A stretch of DNA of 32,000 bases from Methanocaldococcus jannaschii DSM 2661 (GTDB taxonomy: Archaea > AGJL01 > Methanococci > Methanococcales > Methanocaldococcaceae): contig NC_000909.1 in the NCBI RefSeq assembly GCF_000091665.1, positions 533,581-565,580 on the forward strand, read 5' to 3'. The translations under genes were made by a program, and so were the position numbers. This document shows, piece after piece, positions 11,905 to 12,764 of this stretch (positions within the stretch are counted from its first letter, which is position 1; each line of letters starts with the position of its first letter). Below the pieces are notes generated by a model. That model saw only the letters and a program-made list of their open reading frames with translations, did not search any database and was not told the origin of the DNA.

Positions 11905-11979
11905 CTATACTGTCTCGCCCTCTGCCTCCCTTTTCTCAATTCTTGACTTAATCAACTTCAATCTGAAGAAGTTTTCCCT
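11905..11979 (-). pseudogene. orphan duplicate of the last 24 codons plus stop of atpD
   Basis: The reverse complement translates to [24 protein letters not shown], identical to the functional AtpD C-terminus at 12114-12188. There are 13 nt differences, all at third codon positions and all synonymous (including TAG versus TAA). Confidence 0.85.
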
Positions 11980-12113
11980 GCAACTTTTAGAAAAAGTTAA
12001 ACAAAAACTCTTCGAGTTTTTGTAGCCAGAAAGCAAAGCTTTCTGTTAAACAAATCCTTCGAATTTGTAACCCGAAGCTAACGCTTCAGTTGCATCAAAA
12101 ATTATTTTTGTAA
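11980..12113. repeat. hairpin-module element between the orphan and functional atpD 3' ends
   Basis: The left end AACTTTTAGAAAAAGTTAAA (11982-12001) is followed by two double-hairpin units (11998-12046 and 12047-12090). An AT-rich hairpin CAAAAAT-T-ATTTTTG lies next to the atpD stop. Confidence 0.8.
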
Positions 12114-12764
12114 TTATACTGTCTCCCCTTCGGCTTCTCTCTTCTCAATTCTCGATTTAATTAACTTCAACCTGAAGAAGTTCTCTCTTTCCATCTCATC
12201 CAATCTCATTGATATATACTTTTTGAGAGATTTTAATCTTGGGATAATAACATACTCTAAAGCATTAACTCTTCTTTTTGTTGTTATAATCTCCTCAGCT
12301 AAGAGTTTAATTGATGTCTCTATTTCAGCCAATTCAGTTATTAATTCTAAAGCTTCTTCAAATTTCTTAGCTGCTTCATCTAATTTTGAGCTAACTCCGT
12401 AAGGTGAGTAGCCTCTTTCACCAACCTTTCTTCTAACGTTGTATATTTCAAAAGTAGGAACAGTAACACCCATAATATTCTTTGTATCCATATCAACTTC
12501 TAATTTATCATTCTTAGCTGCTAATGCTGCCTCTTTAACTGCTAAAGTTCCCATAACTGTCTGAGCCATTATCAAATCTTTATATGCCTCAGCTAACTTT
12601 GCCTCAACCTTATCCCTCAAATCTGAAGCTTGCTCTATAATTTGGAAGAATTCCATGATTAAAGCATCTCTTTTCTGCTTAAGCAATTTATGCCCTTTTT
12701 CTGCCAATTTAATTTTATTTTTTAATTTTAATAACTCCATTCTTGTTGGATTCACTCTCTGCAT
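12114..12764 (-). CDS. atpD: A-type (V-type) ATP synthase subunit D
   Basis: 216-aa coiled-coil protein. N-terminal [11 protein letters not shown] and [13 protein letters not shown] are characteristic of the A/V-ATPase D subunit. Confidence 0.9.

Follow-up and report, generated by a model that had tools for sequence, protein, structure and literature searches.

Synonymous-only divergence of a duplicated atpD gene end around a hairpin element in Methanocaldococcus jannaschii most probably reflects recombination with working alleles

When the last codons of a gene occur a second time beyond its stop codon, and the two copies differ only at silent positions, must both have been selected as protein? 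This question is raised by a 32,000-nt stretch of the Methanocaldococcus jannaschii DSM 2661 chromosome (NC_000909.1, positions 533,581 to 565,580; the window hereafter), in which the end of atpD, the gene for subunit D of the A/V-type ATP synthase, is found on both sides of a small hairpin element. The 216-aa product of the gene is identical to AAB98610.1 / Q58032 and belongs to PF01813. The working gene end (copy A) and the orphan downstream of it (copy B) have the same 24-residue translation, closed by TAA and TAG, respectively; they start 209 nt apart and 134 nt intervene. They differ at 13 of 75 nt, and all 13 differences, 11 of them transitions, are synonymous and lie at third codon positions. 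Outside both copies the sequence is unrelated (21/72 and 19/60 identities). With the observed mix of transitions and transversions kept, the neutral probability that 13 of 13 differences are synonymous is 2.2e-7, and random placement of 13 substitutions gave an all-synonymous outcome in 0 of 200,000 trials, so that plain duplication followed by neutral decay cannot yield the pattern. Up to this point our re-comparison reproduces the first-pass annotation of this DNA, which had reported the duplicated gene end with its silent differences and had excluded a neutrally decaying target-site duplication. That annotation had gone on to argue that both copies evolved under protein-level selection, one of them brought in from a diverged ortholog by an element that carries a replacement gene end. 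Our comparison with relatives indicates instead that the synonymous-only pattern most probably reflects continuing recombination of the orphan with working alleles, and not use of the orphan or an element-borne gene end.

Comparing the atpD loci of about 25 relatives of M. jannaschii, we found the basic hairpin of the insert (H hereafter) together with an orphan in six genomes: M. jannaschii itself, sp. 16A, FS406-22, M. bathoardescens, M. vulcanius and the metagenome-assembled genome (MAG) LMB10 (locus L004). Two further sets of loci are occupied and decayed, namely L239, with H and a degraded orphan, and the L233 group, in which the hairpin is lost and orphan fragments are left. At least 11 related loci have the empty site that the first-pass annotation had envisaged, where the atpD stop codon is followed by a short spacer and the DUF22 gene (sp. 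28A, sp. 10A, M. fervens, two M. lauensis, L003, L005, L096, L103-105, L232 and L236). Occupied and empty states are intermixed on the atpD tree, down to sister strains. The duplicated sequence is the host's own and the empty sites are single-copy, as in a transposable element with a target-site duplication.

Among these relatives the orphans do not look like coding sequence under constraint. Amino-acid changes are present in the orphans of sp. 16A (three) and M. vulcanius (one), the L004 orphan has a 1-nt insertion at its 5' edge and that of L239 several internal deletions, and at L233-235, L237 and L240 the hairpin is gone and copy B survives as fragments only. The orphan frame is without an upstream start codon in 4 of 7 genomes (16A, FS406-22, M. 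bathoardescens and M. vulcanius). Because of these changes, the indel, the deletions and the missing start codons, the orphan, judged by its sequence, is not a gene but a non-functional relic, and the selection on both copies that had been proposed is not borne out for the orphan. We nevertheless considered that the orphan itself might be selected, either through translation (in a 43-codon open reading frame, 11905..12036, or by bypassing from copy A) or because it is needed in cis for expression of the DUF22 gene. The M. jannaschii orphan has, after all, no amino-acid change, the 43-codon frame with its TTG start covers it, and the frame from H into copy B is open in all genomes (FDATFSKSC...). 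We regard this explanation as very improbable, since the four genomes named above have no in-frame start, copies A and B lie in different reading frames in M. jannaschii (209 nt apart), the orphans elsewhere are altered, frameshifted or deleted, many genomes have no orphan at all, and a cis-regulatory role would leave the codons unprotected. The 43-codon frame arises only through modules specific to M. jannaschii, and the combination of a conserved start and an intact frame across relatives, as expected of an expressed small reading frame, is not found. Readthrough or frameshifting that would link A to B is ruled out by the differing frames and several intervening stops. As an observation in its own right, the frame through H into copy B (11980-12101 of the window, and the relatives) is always open and encodes a conserved peptide, (F)DATFSKSC, with no start codon conserved; a coding potential has previously been noted for these hairpin repeats, which the open frame recalls.

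In order to explain why the differences are synonymous without selection on the orphan, we looked at how the two copies relate to functional alleles. In the interior of the copies, the differing codons of six genomes comprise 34 synonymous and 5 non-synonymous cases; a constrained gene and a neutral orphan next to it would be expected to differ more often non-synonymously than synonymously. Several results point to continuing exchange with functional alleles. A nearly identical pair of strains shows what such exchange can do. Upstream of the site, 4 of 1000 nt distinguish LMB10, which is occupied, from JGIvulc (L096), which is empty; downstream, all 475 nt agree. The single copy in L096 equals A at its 5' edge and B at both internal positions at which A and B differ. 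Given that M. vulcanius has the same insertion as L004, the empty site of L096 is a precise deletion through recombination between A and B, a deletion that turned orphan sequence into a working gene end. Plain repeat recombination thus accounts for loss of the insert, and the integrase called for by the attachment-site (att) logic of the first-pass annotation is not required. Similarly, in the functional copy of L232, another empty site, some positions match copy A of FS406-22 and others, in alternation, its copy B; among them is the Gly-to-Glu state of the FS406-22 orphan. Within M. vulcanius, L004 and Methanothermococcus sp. Ax23, copies A and B share lineage-specific codons and amino acids, examples being ...GEAL* in the M. 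vulcanius clade, a CTA codon in M. vulcanius and ...KARIDAREEEA* in Methanothermococcus.

The edges of the orphans tell a complementary story. Next to H, distant genomes have orphan-specific states in common (AGG GGG and variants) that almost never occur in functional copies; the interiors follow the functional alleles. This would be expected if exchange depends on homology to either side and therefore cannot extend to the codons at the edge. The sharp limit of similarity at the hairpin that had been described for M. jannaschii holds in that genome, but elsewhere the hairpin-side edge is degenerate, the first two orphan codons being AGG GGG, AGA AAG or disrupted by a 1-nt insertion. At the other end, the sharp edge at the stop codon is probably due in part to faster decay of the non-coding part.

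For M. jannaschii itself, the view of A and B as two different functional alleles is supported: the alleles nearest to copy A are those of sp. 10A, sp. 16A and M. lauensis (5-6 differences), those nearest to copy B are from MAG_FK and M. bathoardescens (6-7 differences), and the A-B distance of 13 falls within the between-species range of 5-13. On the stronger claim, that one copy came from a diverged ortholog, the genomes differ: the two copies belong to different allele groups in M. jannaschii, and both are of host type in Ax23, M. vulcanius and L004. Nearest neighbours shift in patches along atpD, a breakpoint search within the M. jannaschii gene gave a patchy and not decisive picture, and the pairwise homoplasy index (PHI) test on atpD gave P=0.006 with 20 sequences.

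We envisage three routes for the exchange. Recombination between A and B, as at L096, removes the insert and turns B into the working end of the gene; A and B could convert each other inside one genome; and DNA from another strain could replace either A with the gene body or B with its native downstream flank. As copy B is contiguous with the native spacer and the DUF22 gene, DNA from an empty site would be able to overwrite it with a functional allele. The A-B differences would then be, for the most part, standing synonymous differences between functional alleles, and only the two codons adjoining H would escape exchange and keep their orphan-specific states.

The insert proved to be a composite (Table 1). 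The first-pass annotation had treated the 134 nt as one unit; they are instead a hairpin of about 30 nt, H, with two later modules of 44-49 nt nested in it, and together they fold as five hairpins in series (-38.9 kcal/mol). The left half of H, TTTTTGATGCAAC, is identical in 16A, FS406-22, M. bathoardescens, M. vulcanius and L004, and the Ax23 version has one G->A change, TTTTGATACAAC. In other genomes H is free of modules (TTTTGATGCAACTTTTTCTAAAAGTTGCAG; 10-bp stem, TCT loop, -9.9 kcal/mol), and its general layout is TTTTGATG, with a 9-10-bp stem and a 3-nt loop with a T5 run, then ..AGG. Module 1 is missing at every other occupied atpD site except L239, whose H has a module of its own, different from that in M. 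jannaschii. A lone H is found at the orthologous position in M. jannaschii, FS406-22 and M. bathoardescens (L093 ~7686; L094 ~7721), and the M. bathoardescens copy has acquired nested modules in the left arm, after GATGAAA, which is also the point of nesting at the M. jannaschii atpD. The module-free and lone copies indicate that H is the primary element and a landing pad for GC-richer modules of two hairpins each. In M. jannaschii, two such modules have come to lie inside H.

Table 1. Features of the window bearing on the two gene-end duplications and the hairpin element H
Feature	Coordinates	Strand	Basis or remark
atpD (A/V-type ATP synthase subunit D)	12114..12764	-	open reading frame list, PF01813, names
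Copy A, working last 24 codons + TAA of atpD	12114..12188	-	sequence comparison; read 12188->12114
s1, AT-rich spacer TTACAAAAATAA	12102..12113	-	weak collinearity with native spacers
Left half of basic hairpin H, TTTTTGATGCAAC	12089..12101	-	cross-genome identity
Nested module 1, 44 nt, two small hairpins, 3' end TTTAAC	12045..12088	-	comparison with occupied atpD sites
Nested module 2, 49 nt, two small hairpins, 3' end TTTAAC	11996..12044	-	comparison and fold
Right half of H, TTTTTCTAAAAGTTGC, adjoining the orphan	11980..11995	-	sequence comparison
Copy B, orphan atpD end, in native context ahead of the DUF22 gene	11905..11979	-	sequence comparison; read 11979->11905
s2, native spacer with ribosome-binding site GGTGATG of the next gene	11858..11904	-	collinear with empty-site spacers
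DUF22 gene (PF01629), downstream of atpD	11477..11863	-	start ATG 11863 or 11857
Endonuclease III-like (HhH-GPD) + DUF123 fusion gene (nth-like)	10353..11414	-	last 10 codons + TAG (10353-10385) are copy A of the second case
258-nt composite of hairpin modules	10095..10352	-	H-type palindrome 10124-10140, then one small hairpin, then the orphan
Orphan of the nth-like gene end, 10 codons + stop	10062..10094	-	5/33 nt differ, all synonymous
Lone H TTTTGATGAAACTTTTTCTAAAAGTTTCAT, interval between PAP2-like gene and tyrA, no duplication	8648..8690	-	orthologous copies in relatives

The 17-nt palindrome of H occurs three times in the window against an expectation of 1.5, and the module GAAGCGTTAGCTTCGG is common to the atpD and nth-like composites. 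A scan of the region against Rfam gave no matching family, the single match being at chance level. Metagenomes scanned with the 17-nt palindrome, a pattern too short for the purpose, returned 120 chance matches and none in a Methanocaldococcus context; no matches were obtained when plasmids were searched by blastn with the 258-nt composite beside the nth-like gene, or when viral contigs were scanned with two H variants. We also observed that nested modules sit after ...AAC and end in TTAAC in three independent hairpin copies (12045-12088 and 11996-12044 of the window; L239; L094), which suggests that the module family may have a short specific target, AAC.

The first-pass annotation had proposed a genome-wide search for further gene-end duplications. 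We found the same hairpin family beside such duplications in three more cases: the nth-like gene of the window, a DNA methylase gene and the atpD of another genus. These cases are new beyond that annotation. The nth-like orphan lies 1 nt from the stop of the convergent tyrA; the insertion is found in M. jannaschii only, all other sampled genomes being empty there, and the orphan has 3 differences to each of the FS406-22, M. bathoardescens and MAG_FK alleles compared with 5 to its own copy A. In L096, a DNA methylase gene (PF00145; ~5133-5310, minus strand) has its last 18 codons and stop (57 nt) duplicated around a sister hairpin, TTTTGATGAACCTTTTCACTAAAAGGTTCGGTAGGG, and the copies show 4 differences, clustered at the 3' end. 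Behind the atpD of Methanothermococcus sp. Ax23 (L009 6586-6779), H and its junction, GCAGGGGGA, are identical to the Methanocaldococcus sequence at 27 of 27 nt. Beyond H lies a 57-nt orphan that matches, but for 2 differences, the atpD end of the host, a quite different one; the site is empty at six further Methanothermococcus atpD loci. The orientation of H relative to the gene is the same at all three genes (atpD, nth-like and methylase). Beyond these cases, a DNA-level search of about 250 kb gave no further short-range direct repeats of the H-flanked type, and about 20 kb of extra flanks of M. jannaschii type held no more gene-end duplications. Short-range repeats in L010-L013 turned out to be internal to the proteolipid gene and to a repeat-protein gene, and are irrelevant here.

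Two hairpins beside the nth-like gene deserve separate mention. In M. jannaschii, the hairpin directly after the stop codon (10340-10360 of the window) takes the last 6 nt of the gene into its stem (CCATAGAGGGGGC gta GCCCCCTCTATGG). At the corresponding place in MAG_FK (L003 ~8135-8230) there is a different hairpin, which starts inside the stop codon (ATAGAAGGA...TCCTTCTAT) and has no duplication. Modules of this kind may supply or target the stop codon.

As to its origin, the duplication would have formed together with insertion of H, through staggered breaks and fill-in that leave a long target duplication or through a double template switch, and it may originally have run past the stop codon into a spacer whose useless copy has since shrunk. 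The spacer s1 between copy A and H shows weak collinearity with native spacers (P 0.005-0.05, uncorrected for multiple comparisons; examples are s1 of FS406-22 against the 10A spacer, P=0.005, and s1 of 16A against its own s2), and it probably represents a second, shortened copy of the native spacer behind copy B. Repeat lengths vary (33, 57, 75 or more nt), and AGGGGGAAC, the right end of H, has purine-rich microhomology to AGAGAGAAC of the gene. The host-type nature of both copies across genera, the collinearity of s1 and this microhomology fit a host-derived duplication made at insertion. Taken as a whole, an H element inserted with a duplication of the host gene end, whose orphan has since been exchanging sequence with functional alleles, is our best explanation, and we hold it with moderate confidence. 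Tandem duplication by unequal crossing-over with a pre-existing H is ruled out, as it predicts two copies of H.

A variant of the origin step dispenses with transposition: in a repair or replication accident, for example a microhomology-mediated template switch, H would have been copied from another place and the gene end then copied again. Microhomology at both junctions (AGGGGGAAC/AGAGAGAAC, and TTTTGATG against host TTTTGGTG at the ribosome-binding site), the resemblance of the left arm of H, AACTTTTTC, to the target AACTTCTTC, the variable repeat length and the collinearity of s1 with the native spacer would all be in keeping with it. However, these microhomologies are short and purine-rich and may be chance, and the recurrence of one family at three genes, and of one junction in two genera, speaks for a process that is targeted or guided by an enzyme. 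We consider such an accident rather unlikely, and it would change only the first step of our best explanation and is not a full alternative to it.

Several observations weigh against insertion with a host-derived duplication followed by allelic exchange. Vertical descent does not account for H and its junction being identical at 27/27 nt in two genera, and the explanation names no enzyme or mechanism for a duplication of 33-105 nt. In 3 of 4 types of occupied site the repeat has its limit exactly at the stop codon, a boundary that target duplication explains only via later loss of the spacer copy, which is useless and would be deleted as far as selection permits. As for the exchange, the PHI test gave P=0.13 within the jannaschii clade alone, and since the sequences are short and two-state third positions near saturation, allele matching is weak evidence. 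The exact donor of copy A or B of M. jannaschii is in none of the sampled genomes. Moreover, copy B of M. jannaschii shares GGC with the M. bathoardescens orphan, so that part of it has been an orphan for some time, still without amino-acid change. The M. jannaschii orphan is thus cleaner than exchange predicts, and part of the pattern is left unexplained.

The kind of element proposed in the first-pass annotation offers a rival explanation. If gene-end copy and H together form a non-autonomous element, mobilised in trans by a site-specific recombinase, that inserts at the 3' end of a target gene and provides it with a new end, A and B would be attL and attR, each functional in turn. The direct repeats do flank the insert and include the 3' end of the target gene. 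At the nth-like gene, the methylase gene and the Ax23 atpD, the stop codon is where the repeat ends; the element has a single orientation relative to each of the three genes, polymorphism of the site goes with precise loss, and the synonymous bias is strong in all genomes. Furthermore, 3'-distal parts of protein genes are used as targets by archaeal integrated elements, whose att repeats are 29-69 bp long and which rebuild the frame (PMC6563490), and some strains have a 1.3-kb cargo with a TIR-domain gene at the same atpD/DUF22 junction. This cargo, however, lies outside the repeats with no third repeat and without an integrase, and at about 25 loci there is no gene between the repeats and no integrase or larger element bounded by A and B. 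Such an element would leave a foreign proximal and a host distal copy. In M. jannaschii the two belong to different allele groups; in M. vulcanius, L004 and Ax23 both are of host type, in Ax23 despite an H that matches the Methanocaldococcus copy exactly. Both copies of Ax23 and of the M. vulcanius clade have the amino-acid variants of their host lineage, which does not bear out an element carrying a replacement gene end. The mosaics need several switches and not one fixed crossover, the orphans decay, the hairpin can vanish while a B fragment stays, and three species have a lone H, free of any duplication, at the orthologous position. We therefore regard a miniature att-type element as an unlikely alternative, although it deserves slightly more credit than a template-switch accident.

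A classical miniature inverted-repeat transposable element (MITE) would be expected to have terminal inverted repeats that match an autonomous insertion sequence and a duplication of fixed length; no matching insertion-sequence ends were found. In sp. 10A (L095 1376-1742), fragmentary transposase reading frames of DUF772 type lie beside a 57-nt imperfect palindrome. We rejected this transposase fragment as the mover of H, its ends being unrelated to H in sequence.

The first-pass annotation knew of no described element of this kind, which is too strong: both 3'-distal integration into archaeal protein genes (PMC6563490, PMC4779613) and the hairpin repeats of this genome have been described. 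The latter are the palindromic MJRE repeats of M. jannaschii reported by Suyama et al. 2005, as cited in PMC2229807. H and its modules presumably belong to them, being likewise small hairpin repeats with many copies in the genome, mostly beside genes and with open frames through them. The abstract of Suyama, Lathe and Bork (2005), said to be in FEBS Lett 579:5281, reportedly mentions no flanking gene-end duplications, no nesting into a basic hairpin and no presence/absence polymorphism. In archaea, integrated elements commonly insert in the 3'-distal part of a protein gene, whose reading frame they reconstitute (PMC6563490, PMC4779613); like casposons, they resemble the present case in having direct repeats with the gene's last codons, an intact frame, and empty and occupied sites among relatives. 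They differ in being kilobases long, with an integrase or casposase and with repeats that are att cores or 14-15-bp duplications, whereas the insert described here is made of hairpins, is 30-260 nt long and contains no gene, and its two repeats are of host type. Integration into a gene 3' end with the frame restored is thus not new; what differs here is the size (tens of nt and no gene), the host-type repeats and the link to a hairpin family.

Among bacteria, phage 21 and e14 integrate into icd of Escherichia coli (PMC12803456). In that system a prophage with its own integrase brings a phage-borne replacement end, which is not shown for atpD. According to Hill et al. 1989, the alternative icd 3' end reportedly differs mostly by silent changes. 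The likeness lies in a protein-gene 3' end that is present twice with mainly silent differences, both versions having acted as functional ends. IS1634 and IS1549, members of an insertion-sequence family found preferentially among Euryarchaeota, create long direct repeats whose length varies (8-514 bp), by a mechanism not known (PMC2266710); they measure 1.5-2 kb, encode a DDE transposase and have terminal inverted repeats, and no transposase or matching ends of this type were found near H. Bacterial MITEs and the repetitive extragenic palindromic (REP) sequences and bacterial interspersed mosaic elements (BIMEs) are similar in being non-autonomous, hairpin-forming, located at gene ends, modular or mosaic, and possibly active on transcript ends (PMC2229807). 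Their target duplications, in contrast, are 2-9 bp or absent. We know of no MITE, REP or BIME that duplicates tens of codons of a neighbouring gene. We therefore file the present elements as small palindromic repeats or MITE-like elements with unusually long gene-end target duplications, with the att-type interpretation kept as the less likely filing.

These results carry a caution for inference from sequence alone, as in a recombining, polyploid archaeon a pseudogene fragment that exchanges with its gene can mimic protein-level selection. They also indicate that the hairpin repeats of M. jannaschii are not merely static, H being polymorphic between near-identical strains, a landing pad for other modules and tied to long gene-end duplications. 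To our knowledge, no described archaeal mechanism accounts for gene-end duplications linked to hairpins. If insertion is targeted, as the identical junction in Methanocaldococcus and Methanothermococcus suggests, hyperthermophilic methanogens would have an unknown DNA-handling activity. More tentatively, and as a possibility on which we would not yet rely, H may represent an unrecognised class of gene-less archaeal elements of about 30 nt that insert at gene 3' ends in fixed orientation and "self-heal" through a second copy of the last 10-25 codons; the same site would be hit in different genera, the mover would be an enzyme making long staggered cuts or a trans-acting recombinase, and the orphans would form a reservoir of synonymous alleles that re-enter the gene on excision.

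Two further observations were made along the way. In one Methanocaldococcus lineage, the atpD/DUF22 junction holds the cargo of about 1.3 kb mentioned above (L233 1274-2575; also L234, L235 and L237-L240), which lies between the decayed orphan and the DUF22 gene and encodes a reading frame of 75-78 aa and a 313-aa TIR-domain protein (PF13676; weak ThsB-like PADLOC match); it resembles a small insertion of defence type that used the same hot spot. Separately, and unrelated to the gene-end duplications, a Methanothermococcus single-cell genome contains a highly repetitive coding region (L013 8075-9500) with many direct repeats of 27-160 nt.

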